Shown: positions 4,251 to 60,238 of the stretch, in pieces
How positions within the stretch are numbered: the stretch's first letter is position 1
Layout: every line of letters starts with the position of its first letter
Source: a virus
Length of the DNA: 64,000 nt
Virus record (IMG/VR): IMGVR_UViG_3300025110_000007
Span: 26,221 to 90,220 of that record
Direction: 5' to 3' (one strand)
The notes under the pieces: generated by a model
Databases searched by the model: none
Seen by the model: the letters and a program-made list of their open reading frames with translations, nothing else
Told to the model about the DNA's origin: nothing
Program-made: the position numbers and the translations under genes

Positions 4251-4251
4251 G

Positions 4252-5661: not shown

Positions 5662-5690
5662 CAGTCATTCCACCGTAGGTCTGCTTTTCA

Positions 5691-34375: not shown

Positions 34376-35560
34376 TCAAGACAAGTCTCGGATTGAACCA
34401 TGACCTCCAAAGAAAGTTGTCCAGACTTCACCCATTGTTCGGTAAAGTCCCTCTTGACCGAGGCGGTTAATGGCGAATGGGTCACCGGTTTCAATACCAG
34501 ACTCGTAGTACTGAGTTGGTTTTGCAACACTAAAGTGAAGGTAGTCAGTGTCCAAGAAGTACATTCGGCTGATGCCGTCTGCTGAAACATCCTTAGATGG
34601 AATGATTGGGACGCCGTTGTAGGTAGCGACGATGAATCCGGCTTCGATACCGGGAACACCCTTGACGCCACCCATGGTTGGGGTCACACGCTTTTCTTCC
34701 ATGAACCGCTGTTGGCTCTGGAGGAGTTGTTGCAGGCGCATCAAAGTGTCATATCCTGTGAGGATGACCTTTGGATTGCCACCACGGACCCAAATCTTCT
34801 GGAAGATGTCGTCGATGTGGTCGAGGCTGAGAACACGCTCAGTCAATCCAGCGTCGGAAGCGACATTGACTTCTGCGTCGGACCAAGTGTTTGCACTTCG
34901 GTCGATGCTGTAAATGTCAAGGTCAGATGCGGCGCTCACATGCGCAGTGTGAGTAGTGGAAGAGCCACCGCTCACGGTTGCGGCATATCCAGTACCGGTG
35001 CTGTCCATGGTGCTTGCGGCGGTGATTCGGTCCAAGGACTCGTAATCGTTGCCAGCAGGAGTGTCAACATCTTGCAAAAGCATCTTGTTGATTTCCTCTG
35101 CGTGGTGCTTGCCCATTTCCTCTTTGAGGACGGAGCGGATGTCACCAAGACCGTCATCCTTGTCGTTAAGGAAGATTGCAACTTCGCTCATGTCGAAGGT
35201 GTGTGCAATGGTCTTTGGCTTTGCGGCAATGTGTTGGAAGGTAGGCTTGGTGGTTTCTGGAAGTGTTCCATTCTCAGCAATGCCGCCACCCTTGGTTGAG
35301 TCAGGGCGAGCGGTCACGACACGCCATCCAGAGCGGTCCCAAGGCTTCTTGGGCAAGATGCTGAATGCGTTGAATTCTTGGTTGAGTTGGGACCACACTT
35401 TGCGTCCGTAGATTGCTTGGTAGGTACCAGCAGTCGTCGAGAGCATTGGTGCGTCAGCCTTCAGAAGTTCGCTACCGGAGTATGCGTAGCCCATGTTTGA
35501 GCCTGCACCGTAGTAGTAGCGTTCCATATCGTTAATTGTTCGTAGGTAATTTCGTGCCAT
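34376..35560 (-). CDS. Major capsid protein (HK97 fold)
   Basis: Follows the protease; GAGGAGG SD; 'GGIAENGTLPET', 'KPKTIAHTFDMSE', 'TYNGVPIIPS', 'MYFLDTDYL' and 'LYRTMGE'. Confidence 0.9.
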   Translation of the reverse strand: MARNYLRTINDMERYYYGAGSNMGYAYSGSELLKADAPMLSTTAGTYQAIYGRKVWSQLNQEFNAFSILPKKPWDRSGWRVVTARPDSTKGGGIAENGTLPETTKPTFQHIAAKPKTIAHTFDMSEVAIFLNDKDDGLGDIRSVLKEEMGKHHAEEINKMLLQDVDTPAGNDYESLDRITAASTMDSTGTGYAATVSGGSSTTHTAHVSAASDLDIYSIDRSANTWSDAEVNVASDAGLTERVLSLDHIDDIFQKIWVRGGNPKVILTGYDTLMRLQQLLQSQQRFMEEKRVTPTMGGVKGVPGIEAGFIVATYNGVPIIPSKDVSADGISRMYFLDTDYLHFSVAKPTQYYESGIETGDPFAINRLGQEGLYRTMGEVWTTFFGGHGSIRDLS

Positions 35561-39900: not shown

Positions 39901-42759
39901 GACATGCATAGCCGCTTGTTCAATAGCCTCAATGTGACTGTTGACTCTTGTTTGAAAATTACTTTCACTGTCCAGATGTGTATTACGAGATTTGATTTCT
40001 TTACCACGCTTGTCATAACGCTTTTGAAGTTCGTCCTCAGTCACAATACCAAGTTCGTTCTCAATGTTGAGCAAATCTTGCTCGTGATGGTGTATTTCCT
40101 CTTTCAATTCATTCATAGATTCGATTTGTACCGCATCAGGGTTAGGCAAATCTTGAAGTTCATGCAATTTTTCTCGGGCCTCATGAAGTTGGATTGACAC
40201 GGCATCGTGGTCATCATGACTATGTTGTTCAGATTCAGTTTCTTCAACTTCATCGACACTCTCAGGCAGTTCGCCTGATTGCCGTGCCTCAAGATAACGC
40301 TTGAGGCCAGCGAGGTCCCCTTCAACAAGCGATTCGCCTCCGTAAATCTCATCATGGCGTTGTCTTGCCAATTCTTTTTGCGTTTGAAGGCTTTGCAAGC
40401 CTTGTTCGACATTCCGAACTGTTGCCTCGGGAATAAGAGGGTTTGCCTTTACTTGTTGCAGAGAACTGAGGTACTGTTGAAGCAACTCTTCTTTCTCAAA
40501 AACGAACTCAGGACTACCCAAAGGAAGCGGTCCCGCTTCTTTTTTCATACGCTTTCTGTACAGCAACCGCTCATAATCTTCTCTTGACCCAGTACTAAAT
40601 TGAGCGGCAGGGGCATCGACTGGTATTTGCCGAGCATCGTGGGCTCTGACTGCTTGGGGGTTCGTCGAGGGCAAACCTGCCCCTATGACTGTGGCTATCT
40701 TGTGGTGAGGAAGTGCTCTTTGCTCTTCCTTGAATGCGGAAGTGTTTCTTTCAATGACACCTTTGCTGGCTCCCAAAAATGGATTGTGTGGCACATGCAG
40801 AGGTGCAAGCGATGAATTAAACCGTTTATTTTTGATTCGTTCTGCTGTTTTGATGTCACCCGCTGACATAGCATTGTTGAACAGAGTGTGTCCTTCATTA
40901 GCATGTAGTCCAGCGAATGTCGATTGTGTACGGGTGGTGTGGTTATTACCATGGCCTATGTTGAAAACAGGACCCGGATTAAGTCCTGTATGTATTGGAT
41001 TGGCTGGTTGAAAAATAAAGGTTTCAGGTCCAAATTTACCGAACCTCATAGGTTCAACTGCCCTATCAGGCATACCAAAACCAGACCGCAGACTATCTGT
41101 CCGAAGATAAGCATATCCACCTTGGTCGAACACAGGCCCTTTGAGAGATGCGATGTCGGTTTCATCAGGTCGGCTGTTGTCACCAAAGTGACTTGCTGTT
41201 TCACCTTCAACCAAATTCGTTGCATGCTCGATGTGTTTTCTGGTTTCATGAGCCTTGCCCATGCCACCTGTTTTCATGTGCGCCTGCGACCAATGATGGC
41301 TCAGTGATTCAGGCTCATTCATTGTGTACTCTTCTGCGTGTGCACCTTCACCTTCGTGCGCAACATGAGGCTGGGAGTGAAAGGCAAAAGCATTTCTTGC
41401 GGCATGGTCCTTGGTGAATTTACTTATTTCATCCTCAAACCTAAGCAAGTATTGTTTGATTTCATCTGGAGTCCAATCAACTGAATTAGGGTTCCACAGT
41501 TCCCCGTACAACGGATGCTGTCCTTGCTCATAGAACTTGTAAGAATCCCCTCTTCTCCGGGTTGAAGCAGGGTCAATACCTGCCGCTAAAAGCATATCAT
41601 TTCTTCCAAATCGAGTTGGGGCTGGACTCTTTGCTGTATTTCTTGGTCGCAATTGACCACCCGTTGGGAGATGATACCCGTGTTTGTGAGGTTGTTTGAA
41701 GTTAGCCCTTTCGGCGTTGTAATTAGTGAGGCGTTGGTGTAAATCAAAAGCCCGTTCTTTGAATTGCGAGAGGAAATACTCATTGTTGTATCTCAAATTA
41801 GGCGTCTTAATCAACTTTGCAAACACTGGGTTAGCGGCATAATTCGGGTGCCCTGTCCAATGTTGAAAGATGGGGGAATAACGCTGTACGAAATTACGCT
41901 TGGCTCGGGGTATGGAGTAATTCTCTAAACCCGGTATGGTTTGATGCTCAAGACTATCCATATCATTGTCGGCCATGTGCTGATACACTTGTACACGCTG
42001 TGCAGGCGTAAGCCATTCCATTCCGTACAAATAGTCCTCTTCACCCATACCTATGCGTCTTCCGCTCTCTTCGTCAATCTCGTCGCTTTGCCAACTCTTG
42101 ACGGCCTGCTTCATGTGTTCTTCTCGCAATGTTTTCTCAAGGGCTTCGCCTTTGGGGCTATTTAGAAAATCCAGTAAGCCCGGTTGTTTCTTCATCAATC
42201 CTTTGAGAAAATTGTAGTAATGAGCCTCATACAAATCGTGATTGCTCTGGTTTTGTGGCAACGCACCTAAACCATCAGGTTTTGTAATGTGTTGAGTGCC
42301 TTGATGCTCCTTTTCCCAAGCGTACTCTTTCTCTTTGTGCTTTTTGGAAACACCATCTGTGAAAAAGGATTCAAGCAGACGAACCCACATAGGTGCAATA
42401 TCGAGTTCTGGATGGGCCTCATGCAAGGGGTCAAAATCAAGCGGTGACACATCTGGAAAGTGCTCTGCGCCCGTACCACGAAGTTCTTCCTTACGACCGA
42501 TTGGAAGGTCGTTGAAGTTTTGAATGCGGTCTTTGGGCCAATGACTACCTCTGTGGACAGGGTCTTCCAAAGGCATTATTCGTTCTGCGTGAGGGTGGGC
42601 ACCCAGCATCGTTTGCTGAAAATCGCCCGGAGTTTCTGCCGCAGATGTTTCAGGTGGCTGACCGTCAAAAAGGGTATCTCTTTGTTCTTCTGTCTGACCA
42701 ACCGACACTGCTTGGTTAGCCTCATCTTCTGCATCTTTCAGCAGAATATCTTCGGACAA
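36997..42759 (-). CDS. 1920-aa head-module protein with degenerate ATP-dependent DNA ligase (NTase+OB) domain near C-terminus
   Basis: 'WIVSAFPEGERFF', 'HIFDVIEYDD..PVQERIKIL', 'ILMRDAKSAYMKGEPRHPKW' and an OB-like 'GDLVKVDV'; GGCGGTGA SD; TTG start. Confidence 0.75.
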   Translation of the reverse strand: MSEDILLKDAEDEANQAVSVGQTEEQRDTLFDGQPPETSAAETPGDFQQTMLGAHPHAERIMPLEDPVHRGSHWPKDRIQNFNDLPIGRKEELRGTGAEHFPDVSPLDFDPLHEAHPELDIAPMWVRLLESFFTDGVSKKHKEKEYAWEKEHQGTQHITKPDGLGALPQNQSNHDLYEAHYYNFLKGLMKKQPGLLDFLNSPKGEALEKTLREEHMKQAVKSWQSDEIDEESGRRIGMGEEDYLYGMEWLTPAQRVQVYQHMADNDMDSLEHQTIPGLENYSIPRAKRNFVQRYSPIFQHWTGHPNYAANPVFAKLIKTPNLRYNNEYFLSQFKERAFDLHQRLTNYNAERANFKQPHKHGYHLPTGGQLRPRNTAKSPAPTRFGRNDMLLAAGIDPASTRRRGDSYKFYEQGQHPLYGELWNPNSVDWTPDEIKQYLLRFEDEISKFTKDHAARNAFAFHSQPHVAHEGEGAHAEEYTMNEPESLSHHWSQAHMKTGGMGKAHETRKHIEHATNLVEGETASHFGDNSRPDETDIASLKGPVFDQGGYAYLRTDSLRSGFGMPDRAVEPMRFGKFGPETFIFQPANPIHTGLNPGPVFNIGHGNNHTTRTQSTFAGLHANEGHTLFNNAMSAGDIKTAERIKNKRFNSSLAPLHVPHNPFLGASKGVIERNTSAFKEEQRALPHHKIATVIGAGLPSTNPQAVRAHDARQIPVDAPAAQFSTGSREDYERLLYRKRMKKEAGPLPLGSPEFVFEKEELLQQYLSSLQQVKANPLIPEATVRNVEQGLQSLQTQKELARQRHDEIYGGESLVEGDLAGLKRYLEARQSGELPESVDEVEETESEQHSHDDHDAVSIQLHEAREKLHELQDLPNPDAVQIESMNELKEEIHHHEQDLLNIENELGIVTEDELQKRYDKRGKEIKSRNTHLDSESNFQTRVNSHIEAIEQAAMHVLQKCREQGFDPFEMFKDEFGNPRPDTAVAWLMMQGNTFLNVAPHGSHKIGAMMPVVGQRAEKNPGAGVSHENLLVNMLHSAKYRVDPSVDEGTWLENLGLTEMMENEDGLMVRTNMVDDSIIAHAKRLKKQLMRKNKEDNKIGRRFIVSPVDETIRRMGGMSDEVYGQKFGDSLATYLKDELSFRMTSDGVVNRSHYPNTPNDKVPLENLQLLGPHRFGKEIHPLHAQHEGWTDRHNRRSKIFQTMSRFFGLVGNKQAMDDHFISYHPLPASDHPLSRQSIERENKRRRNVGEPELGTPASYTMSDKRTKHDKRIVSKYLSALDGFLARPVDEQHERKTHSMQEDHVLERQSIGPLGSHDTNAAMAIYNSPSLRYHEGSRNHTVPLGLHIDHATGEMTAYEKDNPEKMQLITPTLPSVLALAPPEHHSAFGPVHEGAHSLDSMPHSMRINSSRRTHNSDASSVHNKMDGPSLLASLTNPDVIRKDMPEGLPSLQPMHRIFELDDLEHLRGFTGDWIVSAFPEGERFFVGHKEGEIFSKATLSEEEKDAFKKVSDKQYIVDVIRGKDVLHIFDVIEYDDENAFEMPVQERIKILRGAMESHEMVHVPSASDTKLTDDDGLASAVKALDTDRILMRDAKSAYMKGEPRHPKWVMLQSGTEVVLMVLDRRGDGPYTYRLGTGPVAHGEDLGDRRVKYEGDDYMDVGAAFESEDKYNVGDLVKVDVTNVTETQASEQQKLFTVHASKIEGEAEGEPLVSSDSLGILAKAEPYQHGVEIFRKGSNVHIQMEQGSVLYKATQTQAGWSVHTPRSDNGYLIRLSESQRPFWSPIVGILLKANMEIEEKAEVHESEDDAEPLIEPKKVKGTDWKKKAVMVKGLEVAMRLLAKSGVGAVGASNSGTKGLGIDYATPIESPSGPTNITDNKTMPDYDVRDVERDKKEEAEDKKEVKENGTLSPDLELTDEKAVYHTS

Positions 42760-49434: not shown

Positions 49435-51527
49435 GCGTCCACGCTCCCGAATGTTGCCTTGATGACTTTGACTGTGCTGAGGTCGACTGACCAATCTTTG
49501 GCCACCCGCTCCCAGTCGCCTTGTGAGTGGTAAATGCCGTGAATGTCCATGTTAGCAAGGCTGAGTTGCTTAGCAATGACACCGACATGCGTTGAGTTGG
49601 AAAGAGAATAGGATTGGCTGGGCGTAATGGATTTGACAAAGGTGTCATTGACTGCGTCGTGCATCTGCACACGCTCCATGGTTTTGAGGAGGTCGCTGAC
49701 ATGTCGGTCGTTAGAAGTGGCAAACAAATTATCTTGTGCTTCTTTTAACCCTTGTTCATAGGAGTCTTGTTGTATCGACTGGTCAGGTCTATTCATAGCC
49801 TGTTGAAGTTGTGCATCAGCGGCCGCATGTGCGGCATCTGCCGTTTCTGATATTCTTGCACCTTTGGTGTGAATAAGTCCTCCCCAACCTTCACTCGGAA
49901 GGGAATGCTTAGCGTGGTCTGGGTGATTTCTGTGAGGTTCGACAAACATTTCTCCGGTTTCTCTGTGTTCTTCACCCGCATGTCCTTCTGTTTGTCTAAG
50001 TGCGTCTGCCAAATGCCGAACCTCTTCTTCGTGCTCGGGTGTAATTATGTGCTTGTGAGTCCCCCTGCCTCCACCGTACTGCCAGTCACTTTCTCTAAGT
50101 TCAGCAAAAGCCTGTTCGTTTGCTTCGTCTTTTGGAACTCCTTCTCTGACCTTGTTGAAAGCCATCATAAGAGGTATTGCCATAAGATGCCTTGCATGCG
50201 TCAAACGACCCTTTGTGGTCTTGCCACGAGTGCTGACCTGATTAAGCAGTTTTTTGTATTCATCACTTTCTGTATCAACGCCATGATGTGCGCCCAATGA
50301 TTGCATAGCCCTATGAAAGGGTCCATTGGAAACCCGGCCAATACTCATCAATCCATTCATGTAAATAGTGTGAGCCAGATTATCGAGGTTGTAAGGTTGA
50401 CCGTCTGGGAATTTTTCAGTGGGCTTTCCTACTGGTCTTATGCCCTTTGCTTTGAGTTCTCTTGCAAGATTTGCAGGCTTATTAGTGCCACCACCGGGGG
50501 TTGTATTGTAAGCGAACATACCCTGTGGCAACCAAGGCAAAGCATCCAACGGGTGGAAATTTTCGATAACGCCTGATTGTACTGAACCATCAACCATTTC
50601 ATGAGGAAGATGACCACTACCTTCAACGAATTCTTGGCCTTTACGCCTATTCATGGTTCGGATTTTCTGAAAAGTCATTATTTCCAAAGGAACCTTGATT
50701 GAGTTCATGTAAGACAATTTTCTGATGTCTGGTATGATGCTGGGGTCAACCGGCGGGGAACCAAAGAGTCCATCTCTTTCGATAGTGGCGTTGAAAAGTT
50801 CAGCCTGTCCTCTCGACTCTTCCCACATGTGATGCAGACCTGCATCAATCCAAGCACCTTTGTCCGAATGTTCCATGTCAACATTTCCTTGATTCAGTGA
50901 ATAGTTCAACAAAGGCAAAGTGCCATCTTCAAGCGGAGTTGCGCCACGAACCTGCCGCTCGTGTGCCTGCGAAACCTTGTCGTGGGGACCTATGTGGTTT
51001 CTTCGCCATTCTGCACTATTGATGTCAGGCAAATTAGTTCCGTATTTTTTGTTGTGTTTTCTAATTGCGTTAGAAAATATATTTTCGGCCACTAACATAC
51101 CCAGTTGTTTAGGATTCTTTCCTGCCAAACGCATATTCATTGACTTAAACATGTCACCATACTGGTTCCCCAAGTGACCAATCATCGCATCAAGAGGATG
51201 GGCCGTTTCTGGCCTACCCTGTGCTCGGCCTTTGTCCACATGCTCGCTAAGTTGACCTGTTTCAAAATCGTACCCAAACGGAGGATGATGGACATGGTTG
51301 CTACCGCTTTCATCTGCGTCGAACTGGTTATACCAACCGTGCAGAGGATGGGCAGGGTCTTGCGCTCCCGGCGGATTGTGCAAAAGGTCAGCAGGTCCCC
51401 AGTGACGGACAGGTGCATTTTTGTGATAGAGCCCAAACGACTTGCGAATAGGAGTAGGTTGATTGGTACTAAAACCAGCCCTGCGCTGACTCAGTTGCTC
51501 AGAAGAGTAGTGAATCTTGAACATCAA
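49431..51527 (-). CDS. His-rich hypothetical protein, putative internal virion protein
   Basis: 698-aa ORF coupled to both neighbours; PIRKSF and DLLKTM sites. Confidence 0.7.
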   Translation of the reverse strand: MMFKIHYSSEQLSQRRAGFSTNQPTPIRKSFGLYHKNAPVRHWGPADLLHNPPGAQDPAHPLHGWYNQFDADESGSNHVHHPPFGYDFETGQLSEHVDKGRAQGRPETAHPLDAMIGHLGNQYGDMFKSMNMRLAGKNPKQLGMLVAENIFSNAIRKHNKKYGTNLPDINSAEWRRNHIGPHDKVSQAHERQVRGATPLEDGTLPLLNYSLNQGNVDMEHSDKGAWIDAGLHHMWEESRGQAELFNATIERDGLFGSPPVDPSIIPDIRKLSYMNSIKVPLEIMTFQKIRTMNRRKGQEFVEGSGHLPHEMVDGSVQSGVIENFHPLDALPWLPQGMFAYNTTPGGGTNKPANLARELKAKGIRPVGKPTEKFPDGQPYNLDNLAHTIYMNGLMSIGRVSNGPFHRAMQSLGAHHGVDTESDEYKKLLNQVSTRGKTTKGRLTHARHLMAIPLMMAFNKVREGVPKDEANEQAFAELRESDWQYGGGRGTHKHIITPEHEEEVRHLADALRQTEGHAGEEHRETGEMFVEPHRNHPDHAKHSLPSEGWGGLIHTKGARISETADAAHAAADAQLQQAMNRPDQSIQQDSYEQGLKEAQDNLFATSNDRHVSDLLKTMERVQMHDAVNDTFVKSITPSQSYSLSNSTHVGVIAKQLSLANMDIHGIYHSQGDWERVAKDWSVDLSTVKVIKATFGSVDA

Positions 51528-52957
51528 GCGGTCCTCCCGCTACCTCGACTAACGAAAATATGACCGGACGCACCAGAGGACCTCATTTCATCGGCCTCTT
51601 TGTTGTCTGTGCCACCTTGTGGCTGAGTGGTTTCTCCGTCACGGTGACCCGCTTCGCCTTCCTTGGAACTGCCTTTGCCTGACGGTGGGGCTTTGTTTGT
51701 GCTGTCCTTGTTCTTGATAGCCCGCTTGAGGTCACGCAGAAGGTTGCGCAACTGGCTGATGTGCAGATAGTTCTCTGCGGACTTGAGGAGCATCCCCATG
51801 TCTTTGAGTTCAGACTTGGACAGTTCTCCTGCAAGTCGTGGCATTTTTCCTGCTCCCATAGGACCGGGAGCGACGGGTGTGCGCTGTTCGATGTTGTGAG
51901 TCTGATAGGGCATTGAGATGTTGCCTACATTTCTGCGAGCGGCACGCTGACCGAGGTTTTGTCGGTATTTACCGGGGAACAACTTGGATGGCTGTTTGGT
52001 TTTGTCACCCAAGTGAGACATTTCGACAGCCAATTCAGATTCAGTCAGGCCACCATGTTCAGTTCTTGGGCTCAAAGTGCGGGACTGTCGCTTGCTTCGC
52101 ATAGATGTAGCAAGGTCAGGTCGACGGCCGCCGGGTGGTCCTTGGAACACCGGGTTGTCGATGTCTTGTTGATTTCTTTTGAGCAACTGGTGAGCGATGT
52201 CGAGCGGCTCACTGCGAGTAAATCCTGTTGCAGGATTGAAAGGAATGCCTTGATTGGTGTAGGCAAAATCATCATCAAACGCCAAACCAACATCTCCTGC
52301 ACCGACAGTGCCTATGCCCTTACCAGTCACCACATTTGATTGGCGTTCATTTTGTCCGGGGTGAATCCTTTCGTCGATGTGCTTTCCTGTTCCCCCGCAA
52401 TGGTAGCAACTAACGGTTTGCGGAACTGTGATTGGTTCACCTGTCACTGGATGATATGTGTGTTGCATGCGTTCAATCATACCTTGCCCATTGCAAACAT
52501 CACAAATTTGGTCCTGCTTCAACAAACGGAACGCTAAGTCCATCGGCTCACCTGTGGCCAATGTATTCTGACCAAACGGTGACATGGCTTGAGCGCCAAC
52601 ACTGAAACCAACATCGGGGCTACCAGTTCCCACGGAACCGGTGATGTCACTAAGTTCCGCTTGATTCGCCATAGGCGTTTCTTCCATACCCTCCTCTTCC
52701 ATTTCTTCTGGTACAGGCATGTCTGGAGGCATTTCAGGTTCAGGTTCTTCAACGCTGACTTTGAGATGGGGATTGTCGCTGACTTTTGTTTCAGCATCCT
52801 TTTCTTGCATGCGCTTGTCTTTGAGTTCATCCACCTTCTCAGGAGAACCCTTGCCGTGCTTGTACGAATCTTCGTCATCAGCAGTGTACAGGTGGTCAGA
52901 CTCGGAGCGAGGAGAGTACATACGGGTGTCAGTTCCCGTTCCCATTCCTGCTGGCAT
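51524..52957 (-). CDS. Modular protein with two internal tags and a DnaJ-type Zn finger
   Basis: TGEPMDLAFRLLKQ followed by CDVCNGQG..CYHCGGTG; then SEPLDIAHQLLKR; also GMLLKSA. Confidence 0.75.
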   Translation of the reverse strand: MPAGMGTGTDTRMYSPRSESDHLYTADDEDSYKHGKGSPEKVDELKDKRMQEKDAETKVSDNPHLKVSVEEPEPEMPPDMPVPEEMEEEGMEETPMANQAELSDITGSVGTGSPDVGFSVGAQAMSPFGQNTLATGEPMDLAFRLLKQDQICDVCNGQGMIERMQHTYHPVTGEPITVPQTVSCYHCGGTGKHIDERIHPGQNERQSNVVTGKGIGTVGAGDVGLAFDDDFAYTNQGIPFNPATGFTRSEPLDIAHQLLKRNQQDIDNPVFQGPPGGRRPDLATSMRSKRQSRTLSPRTEHGGLTESELAVEMSHLGDKTKQPSKLFPGKYRQNLGQRAARRNVGNISMPYQTHNIEQRTPVAPGPMGAGKMPRLAGELSKSELKDMGMLLKSAENYLHISQLRNLLRDLKRAIKNKDSTNKAPPSGKGSSKEGEAGHRDGETTQPQGGTDNKEADEMRSSGASGHIFVSRGSGRTA

Positions 52958-52959
52958 GC

Positions 52960-53670
52960 TTAATCCTCCTGTGGTACAATGTCAGTCAAGTCGACATCCT
53001 CTTGGTTGAGGAGTGCGTTCTTGACTCGCATCCATGTTTCTGGACTTTCCTTAGCCATTTCAACTTTGAGGATGTTAATGGTGTTTGCGACCATTTTATC
53101 CTCGGGTTGAGTCCACTGGTTCTGGAAAGTGGTGAGGTCTTTGATTGATTCTCGGATTTCTTTACTGAGGCGCACCATGTCAGACACAGCACCGTCGTCG
53201 TGAATGCTCACTTCGTCCATGTACCTGCCCAATTTTTCATTGAGTCGCTCAGTATTGTGGCGCAGAACATTGACCTCTTCGCCCACCTTGATACTAACAA
53301 TAGCGGAAGCCCCTCGCTGTACGATTGGAGTGAAGTGTTCCTTCATGTGCTTGTACACAAGAGATTCAGAACAACCAATTTCCTCTGCGATTTCCTGAGT
53401 GGTCATACCCTCATCGAAATATGCCACTTCGTAAAGCGAACGGGAGTCATCTGTGCAGACAGCACATCTATGATTAGAGCCTTCAAGATTCTCACCTGCG
53501 TGATTGCGCATGTGTCGCTCAGAAGTGTTGGTTCTCCAGCCCTTATCACGGTCGAGAACACGCATATCGACAGTGCCTTGAGCAATCTGCAACTCAAGTT
53601 CGTCACGATTTTCATCCTGACAGAAAGAGCATGACATCTTCGTCTGCCGACCTGCCATAATGTTGGCCAT
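52960..53670 (-). CDS. Terminase small subunit candidate (tandem CxxC-HTH-HxxxH units plus coiled coil)
   Basis: CSFC..RHMRNH and CAVC..TQEIAEEIGCSESLVYKHMKEH, upstream of terL. Confidence 0.5.
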   Translation of the reverse strand: MANIMAGRQTKMSCSFCQDENRDELELQIAQGTVDMRVLDRDKGWRTNTSERHMRNHAGENLEGSNHRCAVCTDDSRSLYEVAYFDEGMTTQEIAEEIGCSESLVYKHMKEHFTPIVQRGASAIVSIKVGEEVNVLRHNTERLNEKLGRYMDEVSIHDDGAVSDMVRLSKEIRESIKDLTTFQNQWTQPEDKMVANTINILKVEMAKESPETWMRVKNALLNQEDVDLTDIVPQED

Positions 53671-53717
53671 GCCACACCATGCGATAAGGCTTTAGGACAT
53701 TGCACAGAGGATTGGCC

Positions 53718-53996
53718 ATGGGCAGAATCAAAAAGATACCCATCAAAGTGGCCGGAATCCCTGTTTCTAAAGACACGGCAGTGTCGTTAGCCAAAGCCAC
53801 CAGAGATGTGGTGCTGAGGCGCAATGTGCCAGAAGAAACAATGCAGAAAAGAATGGCTACCTGTCAAGAATGCCCAAGTTGGACAGGGTACCGTTGCTCT
53901 GAGTGTGGCTGTGTCATGAAGACAAAGGCAAAATTGGCATCATCAACATGCCCCTTGGGCAAATGGGACAATTACATTCCTGATATTCGGGAGTAA
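53718..53996 (+). CDS. Cys-rich protein (DUF6171-like)
   Basis: RMATCQECP..RCSECGC..KAKLASSTCPLGKW. Confidence 0.7.
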   Translation: MGRIKKIPIKVAGIPVSKDTAVSLAKATRDVVLRRNVPEETMQKRMATCQECPSWTGYRCSECGCVMKTKAKLASSTCPLGKWDNYIPDIRE

Positions 53997-54223
53997 ATGC
54001 CACCTGCCATGAGGACAGATACCATAAGTCCTGCCATCATGTAGGCAATGGTGTCAGAAGAAAGCGTCTGGCTTCCTGTAATGAGCACAAGACAGAGCGT
54101 CACCATGATGGCAAGGATTTGAACCATGACCATGTCAACAATGACTGTTTTCTTGGGTGCATAGATGTCACGAGTCGTCATTGCGATTGCATTTGAAAAG
54201 TAAAATTGTGGTGATGGATTCAT
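53972..54223 (-). CDS. Two-TM membrane protein (holin-like size)
   Basis: Two hydrophobic helices; likely start MNPSPQ after GGAGGT. Confidence 0.65.
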   Translation of the reverse strand: MNPSPQFYFSNAIAMTTRDIYAPKKTVIVDMVMVQILAIMVTLCLVLITGSQTLSSDTIAYMMAGLMVSVLMAGGIYSRISGM

Positions 54224-54224
54224 A

Positions 54225-54848
54225 TCAGCGACCTCCAATGAAACTACGAGCGAAGTTGCCCGTAGTGGAGCCTACTTTTTGCATGAATCCTTCATCAGCC
54301 ATAGCGGCGGCAAGAGCGCCGCCCATCATTGACTGCTGGGCCATGGCAAGAATCTGCTGTTGTTGCATTTCTGCCTGCTGAATGTTCTGTTGACTCTGCG
54401 ATTGAAGAGTAGTGAACTGCCCTGTGATGTTCTCTGCACTCATTGTTTGCAAGTTGCTGGGCAGGGAGGTAATGTCGAGACTCATTTTTCCAGAATCTTC
54501 GTCGACAGTGAAGGACGCATTCTTGAGTATCTCCAAAACAGAGAAACTCACAATGTCATTAAGCATCTGTATGAGGGTTGCCATCTGTGGACCAGCGACA
54601 AATCGGTCCATAGGTGCAATTGAACGCATCAAAGCGAGTTGAATTTCTGCCTCAGATGGGGGTGTGATAGGCTGTTGCATCATCTGCGGGTTAATTCCTG
54701 CGCCCTGCATGAACGAAGCACCCATTCCTCCCTGTGCAAAAGCAGTATTCTGTTGCTGTTGAGCAAAGCCATAGGGTTGAGGGCTCGTGTTTTGGGCTAC
54801 GCCAAGGTTAAGCGCACCTGTGTTTTGTTGATTATTGCCAAATAACAT
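54225..54848 (-). CDS. Gln/Met-rich hypothetical protein
   Basis: AGGTGA SD; operon-coupled. Confidence 0.7.
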   Translation of the reverse strand: MLFGNNQQNTGALNLGVAQNTSPQPYGFAQQQQNTAFAQGGMGASFMQGAGINPQMMQQPITPPSEAEIQLALMRSIAPMDRFVAGPQMATLIQMLNDIVSFSVLEILKNASFTVDEDSGKMSLDITSLPSNLQTMSAENITGQFTTLQSQSQQNIQQAEMQQQQILAMAQQSMMGGALAAAMADEGFMQKVGSTTGNFARSFIGGR

Positions 54849-54856
54849 GGTATCAC

Positions 54857-55849
54857 CTATTGTAGAGGAAGCCCCTGTGCAGTCTGAGGTACCATCTGCT
54901 CTTCAACCTGTTGGCTTACCAAGGGCTCTGCTTGTTTTATGCCCATCTGCCCAACAGCATCGAGAATTGAAGGTGTGTAATCAGGGGCCTGTTGCCCTAA
55001 TTCCTGCTGAAATATGCGTAAATCAAAGACAACCATGGTCACATCATTCATTTTCGATACCGGATTCTGGTAATGGAGGATGGAAATACCCTGTGTTTTC
55101 TTAGAATCACGCTCTAATTCAGCGAAAAAGGGCTCATATTTGGTCAAAAATTGGGGTGTATTGTCCTTCTTTTTGACCATTGAAATGGGTACTGCGACTG
55201 TACTAACGCCTTTTTTGACCATTTCCTTCATACCTGCTTTGGAAGTAAGGCGTACTTTGTCATCTTCGTCCTCCCATTTGCACAAAAGGTGGTACAAATG
55301 AAGATGTTCTGGGCAATATGTCCCTCTCATTTGGCGTCCGTCTGTGATATTTTCACGAGCGATGAACGCTTGTACCTCACCAGTGACGGGATTGGTCCAG
55401 TATTGGTCCCAAAGACTCTCGCCTGTTTCCTCATCACAGATTTTAGCGTACAGATTGTCGTATTTGATGAGGGACACGCAGTCACAGCCATCAACAACGC
55501 ACCGTTCGTGTAATTTGTTGTATCGATATTTCATACCTACCCACCTGAGAGGATTGAAAACGCTACGCTTACTGGGTTTCAGCAATTTACGAGCCTGTTT
55601 TATGTCTTTTTTACGGGCCTTTCTTGGGTCAGGGTGGCGACTGGGGTAAAAATTGACCTTGGGGACCTCGATGTTATTCTTCACGGCTACCTCTTTCATA
55701 CCTTGCTGGGCACCTTGCATCTCCAAAAGTTGTTCGTGGGTCAAGTTGCCCTGCTTTGAAAGCGCCATCATCTGAGTTTCGGTTAGCGTGTGTAGCCCAC
55801 CGTTGCCTTGCTGAGGCACCATTCCATATCCAAATCGTCTATTTTGCAT
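54857..55849 (-). CDS. Hypothetical protein with Cys/His cluster
   Basis: CVVDGCDC...YCPEH, a possible Zn site. Confidence 0.7.
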   Translation of the reverse strand: MQNRRFGYGMVPQQGNGGLHTLTETQMMALSKQGNLTHEQLLEMQGAQQGMKEVAVKNNIEVPKVNFYPSRHPDPRKARKKDIKQARKLLKPSKRSVFNPLRWVGMKYRYNKLHERCVVDGCDCVSLIKYDNLYAKICDEETGESLWDQYWTNPVTGEVQAFIARENITDGRQMRGTYCPEHLHLYHLLCKWEDEDDKVRLTSKAGMKEMVKKGVSTVAVPISMVKKKDNTPQFLTKYEPFFAELERDSKKTQGISILHYQNPVSKMNDVTMVVFDLRIFQQELGQQAPDYTPSILDAVGQMGIKQAEPLVSQQVEEQMVPQTAQGLPLQ

Positions 55850-55861
55850 GTTTCTTACTCC

Positions 55862-56578
55862 TTAACTCGACAACAGGTCCACCATGGTGTTTTCAACATT
55901 CCAGCCGATGCGAGTGGCCATCATGCCACGCCTTGTAGGTATGCCTGCTTTCTGCAACCGTATCAAATCTTCTCTGAACGGGTCGAAAATTTTGTGTTCA
56001 CCAAGTCGTTGTTGTTGCCAAAGCGTATTTGCTTGCTCGTCCCACCATGTATCGGCTTTGTTAGCAACAAGTAAAATGACTTTGGGACAGTATTTTTTAC
56101 CTTTGAGGCGGCTTCTTAGGTTGCGATAGCGGTATTGACGATAAATGAGTGCATCGACAAGATACTTGAATCCACCAACAGCCTCGATTGTTGTTTGCCC
56201 ACCGGCTGACGCCCTGTCATCGAACATGAAAACAACTGCTTCCACCTGCCTGTTGACCATATCATCCATCCACAGGTTCCAAAAACGCTCTTCGCCTGCC
56301 ACATCCGAAGAGTGAACTACACGGGTTTCTCCTTTCCACCTGACTCGCTTACGGCTGGGGGAAGGTAAGAGAAAACGACCAAGAATTTTTTTGTGAGTTG
56401 TGCGTTCTTCAACCGGTATGTGTTCCATCTCACCCGGAGTAGTCAAAAAACGGTCGAGCGTTGTCTTACCAACCATTGAAGGACCATACACTCCAACCTT
56501 TCTTGGAATCCAATAGTGGTACAATTCCTTAGCAAAGACAACACCACCGACCAAAGCCGAGCCTGCCGCCGCACTCAT
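55862..56578 (-). CDS. Ras/Arf/Rab-like small GTPase with N-terminal hydrophobic helix
   Basis: G1 GPSMVGKT, G2 Thr (RTT), G3 DVAGEERFWNLW, G4 NKAD, G5-like MAT. Confidence 0.88.
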   Translation of the reverse strand: MSAAAGSALVGGVVFAKELYHYWIPRKVGVYGPSMVGKTTLDRFLTTPGEMEHIPVEERTTHKKILGRFLLPSPSRKRVRWKGETRVVHSSDVAGEERFWNLWMDDMVNRQVEAVVFMFDDRASAGGQTTIEAVGGFKYLVDALIYRQYRYRNLRSRLKGKKYCPKVILLVANKADTWWDEQANTLWQQQRLGEHKIFDPFREDLIRLQKAGIPTRRGMMATRIGWNVENTMVDLLSS

Positions 56579-56820
56579 TCAAACCAACCCATAACTTTGA
56601 GGCGGGCCCAGTCCACTGTGTTTTCCCAAAGGCTGTATTCGCCATGGTACTCCAGTGCACTGATGACAAGAACACTAATGGCTGACATTAGGATGGCTTT
56701 GACCCATCCCCATGTACGCTCGTATGCATTATCCAATGTGTTTGCCACATGAATAGCACGAAGGGTTGACTCCGTTGCATCATCGCTTGGTGTTTTGAAC
56801 AGCCAGCCCACAGGCTTCAC
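56575..56820 (-). CDS. Single-TM membrane protein
   Basis: WGWVKAILMSAISVLVISAL; overlaps both neighbours by 4 nt. Confidence 0.65.
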   Translation of the reverse strand: MKPVGWLFKTPSDDATESTLRAIHVANTLDNAYERTWGWVKAILMSAISVLVISALEYHGEYSLWENTVDWARLKVMGWFE

Positions 56821-57389
56821 TCCTTCTTTTTCTTGAATTTGCCATCAGGGGCACGGCTGACCTTTTCTTCATCGAAGGACACACCTAATTTTAGTGACTC
56901 GCCTGTTGCTGGTTGAAAGTCTGTTGTGCCAGAAGAGAAAGTCTGAGCGGTATCATTCTGAGCAACCAGCGACTGTGGTCCGCCCGGAACACCCCAACTC
57001 GGCGGCATCTTGCCGGGGTTGGTTTCCATCCAACGAAGTTCGTTTTCCAACTGCGCTTCCTGCATACGGAGTTCCATGTCTTGTCGACGGCGCTCAAAGT
57101 TCTGTTCCATACCCCGGTATCGCATCCGGCGTTCTCTTTCCATTTCAGAAGTGCGTGCTTTTTCGTCCATGCCTTGCTGGAAGAACATTTTGAAGAAGTA
57201 GTAGGCAATACCTTGTACAAAGAAACCACCCATGGCGTAAGTGAACGCATTCAGCGACACGCTCTCTAAATCTATCCAGATGCCAGCGTCGAAAATAGCG
57301 ACAGCAAGTCCGATATTCAGCGATTGCATGAGGATTAACCCCATCAATCTGATTTCACTTTGGTCTGTGGGTTGACTTACGCTTGACAT
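56817..57389 (-). CDS. Two-TM protein with cytoplasmic coiled coil
   Basis: Two TM helices followed by an E/R/M-rich coiled coil. Confidence 0.7.
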   Translation of the reverse strand: MSSVSQPTDQSEIRLMGLILMQSLNIGLAVAIFDAGIWIDLESVSLNAFTYAMGGFFVQGIAYYFFKMFFQQGMDEKARTSEMERERRMRYRGMEQNFERRRQDMELRMQEAQLENELRWMETNPGKMPPSWGVPGGPQSLVAQNDTAQTFSSGTTDFQPATGESLKLGVSFDEEKVSRAPDGKFKKKKE

Positions 57390-57480: not shown

Positions 57481-58716
57481 TCAATCTTTTTTCTTGTCAC
57501 GCTTGCCCTCAGTCGAGGGACCGGGGCCTGCTTTTCCAGACCCAATGACGATGACCATACCGTGAGCAGGCTTCTTTTTCTTATCTGATGACTTGTCTTC
57601 GGCTTTCTTTTCGCAACCACACATCTTTTGCATTTTACCGCAGGAAGGACACGATGCTTTGCGTTCCATGTCGTTAATTGCAGATTTGAGAAGGAATTCA
57701 CCGAGGTCCATGTACTCACCAGTTAGTTTCTGCGAGGAGGCTCGACTATTTGGGTCTTGCCATTGAACATCAGCGTACGGGTCTGGCTGTTGTTGGTTCC
57801 AATTGACATCGTTCCAAATGTCCTGTCGAGCACCTTGGCCCACACCGACATTCTGTACTCCGCCGATGCCTCCACCGGCTTGGTCCAATTGATAGCCGCC
57901 TGTGCCTGACGCACCTGCGCCTGCACCTGCGTAGCCGGGTGACATGCCTGTCATTTGTGGGGGGTCTGTGGGATTGTTTTGCAAAAGTGACCCGCCCGCC
58001 GCTAAAAGGGCAAGTGCTGGGTCCAATCCAGCATTTTGAAGAGCATAGACTCTTCCGATGTTTCTGGCATTATTAGCAACCGCCTGACTGCCTCGCAGTC
58101 CTGCTTGTGTACCTGCTCGCCCCAATGCTCCCGTTCTGCCTGCTTGCCGTGCGGCTTGTCTGCCCATGCTCAAAGCATAAGGGGATTGTTGGGCGGCCAA
58201 TCTAAATTGTGCTTGTCGTGTTGCGTTGCTACCTGCTCCTGTAAGACTCCCAAGAGTCGGGCTTGCTACGCCTGTTCGATTAAACATTCTTCGGGCGTTT
58301 GCGGCCGCTATTTGTCCTTCCGGTATAGTACCAATGGCTTTACCTGCGTTTCTTTCGGCGGCATAGCGTGCGGCATTTTGAGCGGCGGCTTGCTTTGCCG
58401 CTTGCTTTGCCGCTTTGCGACCAAAGATTTTAGCGCCGAGTTTGCCGCCTAATTTGGCAGTCGCACCCACTCCGCCACCTGTACCTTGAGCAAAACCGGT
58501 GCCGAATTCAAGAGCATTACTGGCGAAAGAATCATCGCCTTCTGTGCCTACTACTCCAAGAACGGGGTCAGTGACTCGATTGTCTTTGACATTCTTGTAG
58601 CCTTGATATGCACCATAAGCACCCATAAGAGCAGGAATAGCAAGTGCAGGTAAAATTTTCTCAACCCGATGTCCTTCTTGAAGAACATCCCAAGCGGCAT
58701 CGGTAGGAGAAGTCAT
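57481..58716 (-). CDS. Ala/Gly/Gln-rich tagged protein, putative DNA pilot/ejection protein
   Basis: N-terminal SPTDAAWDVLQE, hydrophobic ILPALAIPALMGAYGAY, AAKQ repeats; internal KLTGEYMDLGEFLLKS precedes a CPSCG..C module. Confidence 0.7.
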   Translation of the reverse strand: MTSPTDAAWDVLQEGHRVEKILPALAIPALMGAYGAYQGYKNVKDNRVTDPVLGVVGTEGDDSFASNALEFGTGFAQGTGGGVGATAKLGGKLGAKIFGRKAAKQAAKQAAAQNAARYAAERNAGKAIGTIPEGQIAAANARRMFNRTGVASPTLGSLTGAGSNATRQAQFRLAAQQSPYALSMGRQAARQAGRTGALGRAGTQAGLRGSQAVANNARNIGRVYALQNAGLDPALALLAAGGSLLQNNPTDPPQMTGMSPGYAGAGAGASGTGGYQLDQAGGGIGGVQNVGVGQGARQDIWNDVNWNQQQPDPYADVQWQDPNSRASSQKLTGEYMDLGEFLLKSAINDMERKASCPSCGKMQKMCGCEKKAEDKSSDKKKKPAHGMVIVIGSGKAGPGPSTEGKRDKKKD

Positions 58717-58970
58717 TCGGAACACTCCTTTCCATGACTCATCTGGACATAAGCGTTGCTCACCATACGATACTGCTCCTGTGCTTCGACAAGGTCGGTG
58801 ATAAGATGGGGGTATTCGTCACACGCTTCTTCCAAAATATCAACAACGGAAGCGAGGTGCCTACGCAGTTCCAAAAATAATTTGGCCATGAGGATTCGGG
58901 GTATGCCCTCGTAGTCCTCCTTGTCCGCAGAAAATCCCCACTCGTCAAAGGGGTACTTGGTGGCCGTCAT
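58713..58970 (-). CDS. Hypothetical helical protein
   Basis: ATGA overlaps on both sides. Confidence 0.65.
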   Translation of the reverse strand: MTATKYPFDEWGFSADKEDYEGIPRILMAKLFLELRRHLASVVDILEEACDEYPHLITDLVEAQEQYRMVSNAYVQMSHGKECSE

Positions 58971-60238
58971 TTCTTGCCCTCCACAGCCCGATACATCGGT
59001 TTGACTGATTTGCCACGAGGAGCGTGTTGCTTGCCTTTCTTGTGAGCGGCTCGCTTCGTTTTGTTCTCCGTTGCTTTTTGCGAAGGCGACATGCTGTCAG
59101 CCACAGACTTGGGAGCATACCTGCCACGCTTGTGACGGGGCTTCTTCATCTCCTTCTTGTCGTCACCGACGAACTCCCACTTTTCTTTGGTCCACTCCGT
59201 GAGTGATTCTTGGCCTTTTGACTTAGCCTTGAGCAACCGCATAGCGATGTCCATTGGTTCGCCTGTTAATTTTCGTCGAGTATCTTCGTCAATATCAAAT
59301 TGCTGAGGTTGGCGAGGTTCATTGGTGATGTTCTGTTCACACGCAGTACAGTACATATTTTCATCTGCACCTTTAGGAAATTGTCTTATGCTTTGTGGGT
59401 CAACTATCGGCTGTAATCTTTCTCCGTGAAGTTGACAGTGTGTGTCAGGGCTATCATATACATTTTCAGTTCGCTCATTAAACACCTCCATGGCAATTTC
59501 TTGAGGTGTTTGTACCTTGTTGCCCTCTTCTTCTTGACCAGCCGCTATTTCATCCCAAGTGGATTGAGGAATACCAAACGCACCAAGCGGGTCGGGGTCA
59601 ACATAATTCTTCCAATTTGGGTCCTGCCAATATGGGTTATCCGGGTCATAAGGTGGGTCATTAGAACCTTTGAGCAACCGCATAGCGATGTCCATTGGTT
59701 CGCCTCTCTTGAAATCACTACCGCCAAGACCTGTGATATTGAGTCCTCTATTGGTTGGCCGACCATCCCACTCACGAGTATAGACAGTAGGTAATCTGTG
59801 CCTCAATGCAGGATGTTCACTTTCTATGATTTCCTGCGGTGCAATGGGATGCGCAGTTTGTTTCATACGACCATCCCTTGAGAAGCCCGTTCGGTAAGGG
59901 TCCAATATCTCCCCATCACCATGTACCACCGCTTTGTTTCCATACGGCATTGCGTTTTCAACATCATATTCTTGACGGTGTTGCTCATCACGGCTGTCAA
60001 AAACAGTCGCCCCTACCGCACCTTGATTGTCTTGCCCCGGATGATGCGTTGGTTCAATTGTTCCATCACCTTGACATGTTATGCAAGTAATGTAGTCGTA
60101 GTCTGTACCACCTTCTCCATCAAAGGGACCTTCATAAAAGCCGCCTTGGCCTCCGCATTGAGGACATTTGTAATCAAGAGTGTCTTCTTGTTTCAGCAAC
60201 CGCATAGCAATGTCCACTGGTTCAGTCACGGTAGCCAC
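58967..60238 (-). CDS. Three-module putative polyprotein (tag x3): DnaJ-type Zn finger, CxxH..CxxC module, DUF5872 C-half-like basic module
   Basis: EPVDIAMRLLKQ, GEPMDIAMRLLKG and GEPMDIAMRLLKA each start a different module. Confidence 0.8.
   Translation of the reverse strand: MATVTEPVDIAMRLLKQEDTLDYKCPQCGGQGGFYEGPFDGEGGTDYDYITCITCQGDGTIEPTHHPGQDNQGAVGATVFDSRDEQHRQEYDVENAMPYGNKAVVHGDGEILDPYRTGFSRDGRMKQTAHPIAPQEIIESEHPALRHRLPTVYTREWDGRPTNRGLNITGLGGSDFKRGEPMDIAMRLLKGSNDPPYDPDNPYWQDPNWKNYVDPDPLGAFGIPQSTWDEIAAGQEEEGNKVQTPQEIAMEVFNERTENVYDSPDTHCQLHGERLQPIVDPQSIRQFPKGADENMYCTACEQNITNEPRQPQQFDIDEDTRRKLTGEPMDIAMRLLKAKSKGQESLTEWTKEKWEFVGDDKKEMKKPRHKRGRYAPKSVADSMSPSQKATENKTKRAAHKKGKQHAPRGKSVKPMYRAVEGKK
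59229..60223. repeat. Dispersed tag-coding direct repeat, three copies
   Basis: TTGAGCAACCGCATAGCGATGTCCATTGGTTCGCCT is identical at 59229-59264 and 59670-59705; a 32-nt copy with 3 mismatches lies at 60192-60223. Confidence 0.9.

Follow-up and report, generated by a model that had tools for sequence, protein, structure and literature searches.

Here, we report a six-gene block centered on a virus-encoded small GTPase, located in a 64,000-nucleotide (nt) stretch of viral DNA (the whole stretch that was analyzed; hereafter, the window). The window covers bases 26221 to 90220 of IMG/VR record IMGVR_UViG_3300025110_000007, which is linear, 90,220 bp long, and estimated to be 85% complete. Six open reading frames (ORFs), all on the minus strand of the program-made ORF list, fill the region from 53972 to 57389 and are here called genes A to F in 5'-to-3' order (Table 1); a first-pass annotation of the sequence had placed the same six ORFs there. 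The junctions A/B, B/C, C/D, D/E, and E/F measured -4, -4, +12, +8, and -14 nt, respectively, and the gap 5' of gene A was 91 nt. By hydropathy, transmembrane (TM) segments were called in three of the six proteins: two in F, one in B, and, from a single above-threshold window, one in A; C, D, and E had none. Junctions, hydropathy, and amino acid composition together bear out the annotation's picture of a GTPase gene tightly coupled to three TM proteins, a Cys/His protein, and a Gln-rich protein.

Table 1. Features of the six-gene block and of its surroundings (positions in the window; aa, amino acids)
Feature	Position	Strand	Description
Gene A	56817-57389	-	190 aa, two hydrophobic segments and a charged helix
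Gene B	56575-56820	-	81 aa, one TM segment
Gene C	55862-56578	-	238 aa, divergent small GTPase, probably Arf-like
C, N-terminal helix	56510-56575	-	Residues 2-23
C, G1	56462-56485	-	GPSMVGKT, residues 32-39
C, G3	56291-56305	-	DVAG, residues 92-95, then Glu96 (start of switch II)
C, G4	56051-56062	-	NKAD, residues 173-176
Gene D	54857-55849	-	330 aa, soluble Cys/His protein, no known family
D, putative zinc site	55304-55501	-	C117, C122/C124, C179, H182 (RCVVDGCDC ... GTYCPEH)
Gene E	54225-54848	-	207 aa, Gln/Met/Gly-rich
Gene F	53972-54238	-	88 aa, two TM segments
Convergent Cys-rich gene	53700-53996	+	98 aa, downstream boundary of the six-gene unit
Helix-turn-helix protein gene	52960-53670	-	236 aa
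Tag-bearing flanking gene	51524-52957	-	477 aa
Tag-bearing flanking gene	57481-58725	-	414 aa
Tag-bearing flanking gene	58967-60238	-	423 aa
Capsid protein gene	34376-35560
Giant ORF	6447-21953	-	5168 aa
Giant ORF	36997-42759	-	1920 aa

The block was retained in relatives. Lineage 1 comprised 46 IMG/VR loci with a GTPase 64 to 95% identical to C; tblastn found C, D, E, F, and a 236-aa protein encoded downstream in 46/46 of them and A and B in 45/46, the single locus without A and B being cut at the contig end, and the order A-B-C-D-E-F was collinear in 45 to 46 of the 46. Further lineages were reached with distant GTPases of the family (P0129, 4 loci; P0125, 13 loci; P0156, of lineage 4, at least 140 loci, 80 of them kept). 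Out of the resulting 143 loci, 21 were dropped for flanks that were too short, and the 122 testable ones include many near-identical contigs, so that they do not amount to 122 independent observations. Gene D lay directly downstream of the GTPase gene in 122/122 testable loci and was translationally coupled to it in some lineages. A TM protein of 120 to 290 aa, either a homologue of A or its positional analogue, was encoded upstream in all 122; a Gln-rich ORF (at least 9% Gln, 180 to 300 aa) followed downstream in 120/122, and an ORF of 60 to 100 aa stood just upstream of the GTPase gene in 110/122. The lineage-1 shortfall of this small ORF is attributable to greedy ORF choice, because a hidden Markov model (HMM) profile of B matched 41/41 testable loci there. 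The same profile matched 10/11 testable loci of lineage 2, and the profiles of E and F each matched 41/41 loci of lineage 1 and 11/11 of lineage 2, with no match to the F profile in lineages 3 and 4. Both lineage-3 sequences were contained in the A and B profiles, whose lineage-3 matches follow by construction.

With GTPase identity falling to ~33%, all four lineages shared the core order [two-TM protein]-[small protein, mostly one TM]-GTPase-D-[Gln-rich protein]. Synteny in relatives, which the annotation had offered as a test of its reading, thus gave a favorable result. The five-gene core is very probably one functional unit.

Gene C, at the center of the core, almost certainly encodes a real GTPase of the Ras superfamily. 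In addition to G1, G3, and the guanine specificity motif G4, it has a G5-like MAT at residue 220 and a conserved RTxH at residue 59, within a long switch I; the latter could be G2, which sequence alone cannot confirm. The motif set had previously been called complete from G1 to G4: G1, G3, and G4 stand on motif reading, and for G2 there is only this candidate. The switch II region described at that time as eukaryote-like, DVAGEERFWNLW, was found in C as quoted, and its Rab-like ERF proved to be confined to the window's own clade rather than a trait of the family. An alignment-based AlphaFold2 model of C (predicted local distance difference test score [pLDDT], 87.3; predicted template modeling score [pTM], 0.85) had a helix at residues 2 to 23 ahead of the G domain, in agreement with the N-terminal hydrophobic helix noticed earlier. 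This helix is hydrophobic with Gly and Ala (SAAAGSALVGGVVFAKELYHYW), with a mean Eisenberg hydrophobicity of 0.42 and a mean moment of 0.22 (relatives reach a moment of 0.50). It was not called as a TM segment (KD19 maximum, 1.25; threshold, 1.5) and is presumed to be a membrane anchor.

Searched against the PDB with Foldseek, the model of C gave at least 500 small-GTPase matches (probability, 1.0; E ≤ 0.001), and VIA-align realignment of Foldseek's top 1000 chains returned Z ≥ 8 for 999/1000. Homologues of C numbered 477 proteins at E ≤ 1e-3. An 18-row family alignment had G32, G37, and K38 nearly invariant, D92 and G95 invariant, and D120 and R122 kept. The G1 motif was present in 164/197 stored family proteins, fragments included, and G4 read NKAD in 132, NKMD in 6, and NKSD, NKYD, and NKFD in one each. 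That the GTPase motifs of C are a chance resemblance, and C not a GTPase at all, is extremely improbable. Such a view could draw on single-sequence searches, which stayed below threshold: Pfam gave Roc (E 0.013; 16.2 bits against a cut-off of 27) and Ras (E 0.15), with no family above its cut-off, NCBIfam gave only small_GTP (E 0.0016, sub-threshold), and phmmer against PDB sequences gave nothing relevant. It is contradicted by the model, the fold matches with Z up to 17.7, a family-profile match at E 1.7e-7 (both detailed below), and motifs that extend over the 477 homologues.

Glu96 of C occupies the catalytic Gln position of Ras and Arf, which bears out the substitution recorded earlier, and Glu was one of several residues found there among relatives. 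In the 149 G3-bearing proteins among the 197 stored family members, the residue after DxxG was Glu in 95, Gln in 27, Asp in 18, His in 7, Asn in 1, and Ala in 1. Because this position varies among polar residues while the nucleotide motifs are fixed, GTP hydrolysis by C may be slow or assisted by a partner. The scarcity of Gln (27/149) would also suit a pseudo-GTPase locked in one state, that is, a nucleotide-binding scaffold in a module independent of GTP hydrolysis. We consider this improbable. The constancy of G1, the Asp and Gly of G3, and NKxD across the family points to selection on guanine-nucleotide binding; moreover, water might still be positioned by polar residues such as Gln, Glu, Asp, and His, or catalysis might come from a partner. 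Partner-supplied catalysis has precedents in Rap with RapGAP and in Sar1, which has His at the catalytic position.

Within the superfamily, C is quite likely Arf-like rather than Rab/Ras-like. The family profile, searched against PDB sequences, had its best match in the Asgard protein GerdArfR1 (8oun_A; E 1.7e-7; positions 13 to 121), followed by Arl8A/B and Arl5 and then by Rab33B and KRas; RecA rows in the same list were P-loop-only matches. VIA-align, which here re-ranks within Foldseek's own top 1000 chains, placed Arf-family chains at ranks 1 to 7 for the C model, an Arf1 complex at rank 8, and Arf, Arl, or ArfR chains at ranks 9 to 11. ARF6 came first (Z 17.7; root mean square deviation [rmsd], 2.3 A over 159 residues), and Arf1 (Z 17.5), Arl8b (17.5), ARL1 (17.3), Arl10B (17.2), GerdArfR1 (16.9), and HodArfR1 (16.3) also ranked high. 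Overall, the Arf-family matches had Z 16.3 to 17.7 and rmsd 2.2 to 2.7 A over 151 to 164 residues, and the best Rab (Rab5) had Z 15.2 and KRas Z 14.9. The family G3 consensus, D[IVL]GG[EQD]xx[FY]WxxW, resembles the Arf G3, DVGGQ...W, more than the Rab DTAGQERF. The invariant D120 after beta4 aligns with Arf VMDS in the profile match, and the G5-like MAT resembles Arf CAT. An ESM-Atlas feature search listed, after the family's own viral clusters, bacterial clusters with 17 to 67% of members carrying Pfam Arf, which we treat as a lead only.

A C-terminal Cys motif for prenylation defines the Rab, Ras, and Rho families. C ends in ...NTMVDLLSS, its single Cys is internal, and it has no C-terminal CAAX, CC, or CXC; it would therefore not be prenylated as Rab and Ras are. 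Rab/Ras membership was rejected on this ground and because ERF in switch II is clade specific. Out of the broader Ras/Arf/Rab-like label that C had first received, the Arf-like part is accordingly retained, on the profile, VIA-align, and ESM-Atlas results, and the Rab/Ras part is withdrawn.

The Arf family is defined by an N-terminal amphipathic helix that is released on GTP binding, and ArfR proteins are almost exclusive to Asgard archaea (bioRxiv 10.1101/2024.02.28.582541). C shares with Arf and ArfR proteins (Arf1, Arf6, Arl1, and Arl8; GerdArfR1 8OUN/8OUM and HodArfR1 8OUK) the fold, a helix before the G domain, and NKxD. It differs from them, as from canonical small GTPases in general, in being ~60 residues longer, with a long switch I (residues 47 to 74) and extra helices after alpha3 and after G4. 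It further differs in having DVAGE in place of DxGGQ, in its Gly/Ala-hydrophobic and weakly amphipathic helix, and in being encoded, unlike ArfR, by a virus whose presumed hosts lie outside the Asgard archaea. Several results weigh against placing it in the Arf family proper. The profile match to 8oun_A spans only the N-terminal half of C. Pfam PF00025 (Arf) was not listed for C at E ≤ 1, and at E ≤ 0.1 it was found in only 6/18 family members (best E, 0.0048). The weak amphipathicity of the N-terminal helix of C counts on the same side. With C scoring under the cut-off of each Pfam GTPase model, we call it Arf-like without assigning it to the Arf family.

The family is isolated in databases. 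An exhaustive HMMER search of 1.84 billion representatives gave only 77 matches at E ≤ 1e-3, mostly fragments of the same family. One 2180-aa match (P0136; E 2.1e-30) consists of ~23 near-identical 90-aa tandem repeats and was rejected as a repeat-inflated false positive. Family members came from marine metagenomes (JGI, ENA, and Tara), on contigs of up to ~90 to 106 kb. Automatic annotation already flags some of them as GTPases, "GTPase SAR1 family protein" being the JGI name for 2 of 120 listed entries. The GenBank phage collection, which may not include records close to the genome of the window, had no match to C or to the lineage-4 GTPase (P0156). Genome contigs searched with C gave 24 pattern matches, none of them a relative, and viral contigs searched with two distant family GTPases (P0126 and P0193) gave nothing.

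In BFVD, there were 72 matches at E ≤ 0.001, and all 50 of those listed were Rab/Ras/Ran-type proteins of giant viruses of eukaryotes. These proteins (e.g., mimivirus Rab, 5XC5; Z 14.6) share the fold and are also virus-encoded members of the Ras superfamily; however, they occur in viruses of eukaryotes and closely copy host genes, whereas C lacks any close relative in cells and, in an archaeal tailed virus, lies within a membrane-protein cassette of its own. In the literature, we found no paper linking magroviruses, the group to which this virus probably belongs (see below), to a GTPase, although supplementary gene tables may list the gene. We likewise found no Arf GTPase encoded by an archaeal virus and, from titles and the starts of abstracts, no GTPase of any prokaryotic virus. 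The word "GTPase" has 0 occurrences in the main text of PMC5434244, PMC11706807, PMC8651126, and PMC10160649.

Magrovirus-type viruses count among the most plentiful viruses of the surface ocean. Capsid protein matches, PolB matches, and replication genes suggest that the virus studied here is an archaeal tailed virus of this type, presumably with a Marine Group II host. Among the genes of the window are those for a portal-like protein and the large terminase (Terminase_6N; E 1.6e-7). The capsid protein matched 11 records, and all 10 listed were tailed viruses of archaea, namely HVTV-1, HCTV-1, and HCTV-5 (32 to 35% identity across 98%) and others assigned to Methanofastidiosa and Methanomassiliicoccales. 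The left arm carries genes for an SNF2 helicase, an RFC-like AAA+ protein, and PolB; the 12 listed, top-ranked records out of 551 matching PolB were haloarchaeal tailed viruses, and most of the 551 were cyanophages. The same replication set is described for magroviruses, with SNF2 named in group A (Philosof et al., PMC5434244), and magroviruses are stated to be akin to Druskaviridae (PMC11706807). Two giant ORFs were seen in the structural region of the window (Table 1). A lineage-3 relative (L050) carries, at 4250 to 5785 on the plus strand and two genes upstream of its cassette, a gene for a 511-aa thermosome-like chaperonin; this gene was recognized by eye and by tblastn, with matches 34 to 36% identical in Thermoplasmata metagenome-assembled genomes (MAGs) and in one MAG labeled Maricaulis.

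A functional precedent comes from Haloferax, in which the small GTPase ArvA carries an amphipathic helix at its N terminus and is required for extracellular vesicles (Mills et al., PMC10927574). ArvA shares its operon with ArvB (DUF2073/OapB) and with ArvC (DUF2072/OapC), a Zn-ribbon protein; knockout of ArvB lowers and knockout of ArvC raises vesicle output, and ArvC is a proposed GTPase-activating protein (GAP) (PMC10927574). The viral GTPase profile, run against 401 genomes of Thermoplasmatota, the presumed host phylum, gave a weak match in 155 and no strong one (best E, 8.9e-6; 17 to 26 bits; model positions ~9 to 73 only), and, as read from fetched loci, the only genes matched were ArvA-type genes. 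Out of 10 fetched loci, 6 had the order GTPase-OapB-OapC, 1 had the GTPase with an OapB-domain protein, 1 had an OapC-like gene only, 1 had the GTPase only, and 1 could not be resolved. Pfam confirmed OapB in 3/3 and OapC in 2/2 proteins, and five ArvA-type GTPases had their best match in MMR_HSR1. ArvA-OapB-OapC operons are apparently common in Thermoplasmatota, with at least one ArvA-operon gene in 9/10 fetched loci; in one locus (L065), the OapB domain lay inside a 338-aa protein.

When the viral family was aligned with ArvA by hhalign, the probability was 96.2%, and the 53 aligned columns ran from the helix through the P-loop to the start of switch I. OapB (PF09846) and OapC (PF09845) had no match at E ≤ 1 in the whole 90,220-bp record, with positive controls in Haloferax volcanii and Methanosarcina acetivorans. 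ArvA membership of C was rejected on the absence of OapB and OapC from the virus and on the end of the similarity after 53 columns. ArvA is thus the closest protein that the presumed host phylum offers, as well as a precedent in function, and viral C is not an ArvA. Both are small GTPases that have a membrane helix at the N terminus and share their operon with the gene for a Zn-binding protein (putatively so for the virus), and both act, or in the viral case are presumed to act, on the archaeal cytoplasmic membrane. Nevertheless, the G3 of ArvA is DTPG, as opposed to D[IVL]GG[EQD] in the viral family, and the Pfam models that ArvA matches are MMR_HSR1 and GTP_EFTU; nothing in the ArvA operon corresponds to viral A, B, D, E, or F, and the ArvA operons examined contained no TM-protein genes.

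This precedent raises the alternative that the viral block serves vesiculation or internal membrane remodeling instead of lysis. C would then bud vesicles or tubules like ArvA or Arf/Sar1, to yield decoy or communication vesicles, a lipid supply, or a membrane-bound assembly or replication platform, with A, B, and F as cargo or receptors and D and E as coat-like or regulatory factors. The nearest matches in the presumed host phylum are indeed ArvA operons, sharing helix, P-loop, and switch I with the viral family, and the best structural matches of C are vesicle-budding Arf proteins in the GTP form; ArvA itself drives vesicle formation with a Zn-ribbon partner (PMC10927574). The missing ArvB and ArvC, the short reach of the ArvA similarity, and the different G3 and Pfam family of ArvA tell against it, as does the lack of a recognized coat-like fold in D. 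On balance, we hold vesiculation to be unlikely.

The partner proteins gave only chance-level matches when A, B, D, E, and F were searched against Pfam, PHROG, NCBIfam, and PADLOC. "A" has a short N terminus, hydrophobic segments at ~15 to 41 and ~47 to 68 (the hydropathy window above threshold being 15 to 33, with the second segment read from the alignment), a long charged Arg/Glu-rich helix (ERERRMRYRG...QEAQLENELRWME), and a basic C-terminal tail; E12, G17, W38, Y51, F56, Q59, R90, and Q110 were invariant in its alignment. In B, a soluble motif near the N terminus, G[RW][IL]FKTPSDDATE.TLR..H.ANT.D.AYE, is conserved and precedes a TM segment at 38 to 56, and F8, D13, E17, T28, and Y33 were invariant even with its lineage-3 positional analogues included. 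E has 31 Gln in 207 aa and a conserved central region. The TM segments of F lie at 36 to 54 and 63 to 81.

D was the best-conserved partner (E 2.5e-40 to the lineage-3 protein). It has 6 Cys and 8 His and begins with a Gln-rich N terminus and a basic helix (PKVNFYPSRHPDPRKARKKDIKQARKLL.P.K); then come the Cys/His core, a beta-hairpin domain in the C-terminal part, and a tail that is again rich in Gln. Across the four lineages, the basic helix K..L.P.K, C117, G121, G171, and C179 were kept, C117 and C179 being invariant and H182 nearly so, and lineage-4 D carries CxxC at the C122/C124 position. These conserved residues make it likely that D binds zinc via a Cys3-His site. The AlphaFold2 model of D was moderate (pLDDT, 64.5); Foldseek found no fold match for it in the PDB (best E, 0.73), and ESM Atlas gave no usable match. 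A profile search returned 664 homologues without names, of the same marine kind and uninformative on function. Complex prediction for C with D residues 55 to 290, GTP, and Mg yielded a score of 0.00 and a mark of 0.32, which give no verdict.

Downstream, the six-gene unit ends at a convergent gene, the 3' end of which overlaps the 3' end of F by 25 nt. Its Cys-rich product (CQEC...CSECGC...CPLG) matched Pfam DUF6171 only weakly (E 1.1e-4; 22.9 bits, below the cut-off of 27), and the gene was found at the same place on the opposite strand in 46/46 lineage-1 loci (34 to 96% identity). This conserved position and orientation mark the six genes as a bounded unit. As the lone plus-strand gene amid a minus-strand region, it may be a boundary, antisense, or regulatory element for the cassette. 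The next gene downstream of the cassette, in 46/46 lineage-1 loci and with a clear homologue in lineage 2, encodes the 236-aa protein mentioned above. This protein has N-terminal CxxC pairs and a helix-turn-helix (HTH) resembling sigma-70 region 4 or HTH_23 (E 9e-5 to 2e-4, below cut-offs) and could be a small terminase or a late regulator. Three flanking minus-strand genes (Table 1) encode proteins with one to three copies of a PxDxA..LLK peptide, here called the tag. A motif scan confirmed the annotation's remark that none of the six cassette proteins carries it.

The surroundings bear on what the cassette is for. It was always found within the structural (late) region, on the same strand, and in the window it lies upstream of the HTH protein and large terminase genes; in lineage 4, the gene for the major head protein (phrog_24667; E 1.2e-25) stands on one side of it and that for a minor tail protein (phrog_290) on the other. 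The cassette thus relocates as a block between genome positions. A morphogenesis helper would fit such sites: the cassette would form a membrane site or checkpoint for head, tail, or DNA packaging, in which the GTPase would time assembly while the Gln-rich and Cys/His proteins would serve as scaffolds or chaperones. Yet the six proteins lack the tag of their neighbors (tag function in capsid targeting being the first-pass annotation's idea only), and no structural-protein family matches any of them. Moreover, haloarchaeal tailed viruses whose capsid protein is 32 to 35% identical have no homologue of the GTPase in the phage collection, and so tailed-virus assembly of this type does not generally need a GTPase. 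We regard a role in morphogenesis as improbable.

Exclusion and takeover modules typically have small membrane proteins beside a switch protein, and the cassette can be found at different genome positions. It might act in host takeover, superinfection exclusion, or counterdefense at the membrane, through receptors, transport, or signaling. This is more improbable still: a strict five-gene order over four lineages is unusual for fast-turnover accessory or exclusion genes, no PADLOC model matched apart from one chance-level hit (E 0.018), and the cassette is placed in the late region.

The reading that we prefer, at a probability of roughly 45%, is that the cassette is a GTP-switched, membrane-docked module for late membrane remodeling or release. 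Action at the membrane is, by itself, the likelier part, and we consider it probable; a role specifically in egress or lysis is tentative and, taken alone, rather doubtful. C would bind GTP through its intact G1, G3, and G4 and, in the GTP state, would dock on the host cytoplasmic membrane via the hydrophobic N-terminal helix, like Arf, Sar1, and ArvA. There, it would encounter A and B (and F), which are membrane proteins of the virus. D would be the likeliest regulator or effector of C, GAP-like or acting like a guanine nucleotide exchange factor (GEF), because no other partner gene is linked to that of C as tightly and because the two are translationally coupled in some lineages; a regulator would also fit the freely varying catalytic position of C. 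The output would be a timed change of the host membrane late in infection, with virion release by membrane breach as the first guess.

Release is ranked first for two reasons: the cassette combines small TM proteins with a portable position in the late region, and tailed archaeal viruses have no known release genes (PMC10791045). That review gives only virus-associated pyramids, budding, and undefined membrane disruption as exit routes of archaeal viruses and contains the speculation that viruses might exploit the host GTPase OapA (PMC10791045). The cassette also resembles holin lysis cassettes in its small proteins with one or two TM segments, its charged tails, and its compact, movable late-region layout. 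Its position just upstream of packaging genes recalls that of lambda S-R-Rz before Nu1-A. The archaeal hosts presumed here lack peptidoglycan, and we know of no lysis cassette that contains a GTPase.

In addition to the redundancy of the loci given above, four points weigh against this proposal. The lineage-4 site between head and tail genes fits morphogenesis as well as release. The weakly amphipathic helix of C (moment, 0.22) could be a fixed anchor rather than one controlled by the nucleotide. D has no detectable similarity to ArfGAP, ArvC, or any other family, so that its part as a regulator is argued from adjacency alone. Finally, A, B, and F matched no holin, endolysin, or spanin family in Pfam, PHROG, or NCBIfam; however, holins are very diverse, and the absent family match does not exclude holin-like action. 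Out of the original interpretation, the virus-encoded Ras-superfamily GTPase in a tight six-gene membrane block is upheld by synteny and motifs, its Rab/Ras label is given up, and its suggested functions in membrane remodeling, egress/lysis, or an assembly site stay proposals.

This virus lineage brings its own presumed membrane-type GTPase together with dedicated partners, in a block kept through four lineages. Five or six small, clonable genes make a concrete set for studying how archaeal tailed viruses exit their hosts. An Arf-like switch would moreover be present in viruses presumed to infect non-Asgard hosts and, ArfR being near-exclusive to Asgard archaea, would bear on the history of Arf-type membrane regulators. 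The furthest-reaching version, which we regard as improbable, is that magrovirus-type viruses carry a true Arf/ArfR offshoot outside Asgard archaea and eukaryotes and that, with D as a zinc-finger regulator and A and B as receptors, it forms the first GTPase-driven membrane-breaching or budding machine in a prokaryotic virus. If true, this would be a solution to how tailed archaeal viruses leave cells, and, early in the history of Arf-type membrane switches, such viruses may have served as their reservoir or vehicle.

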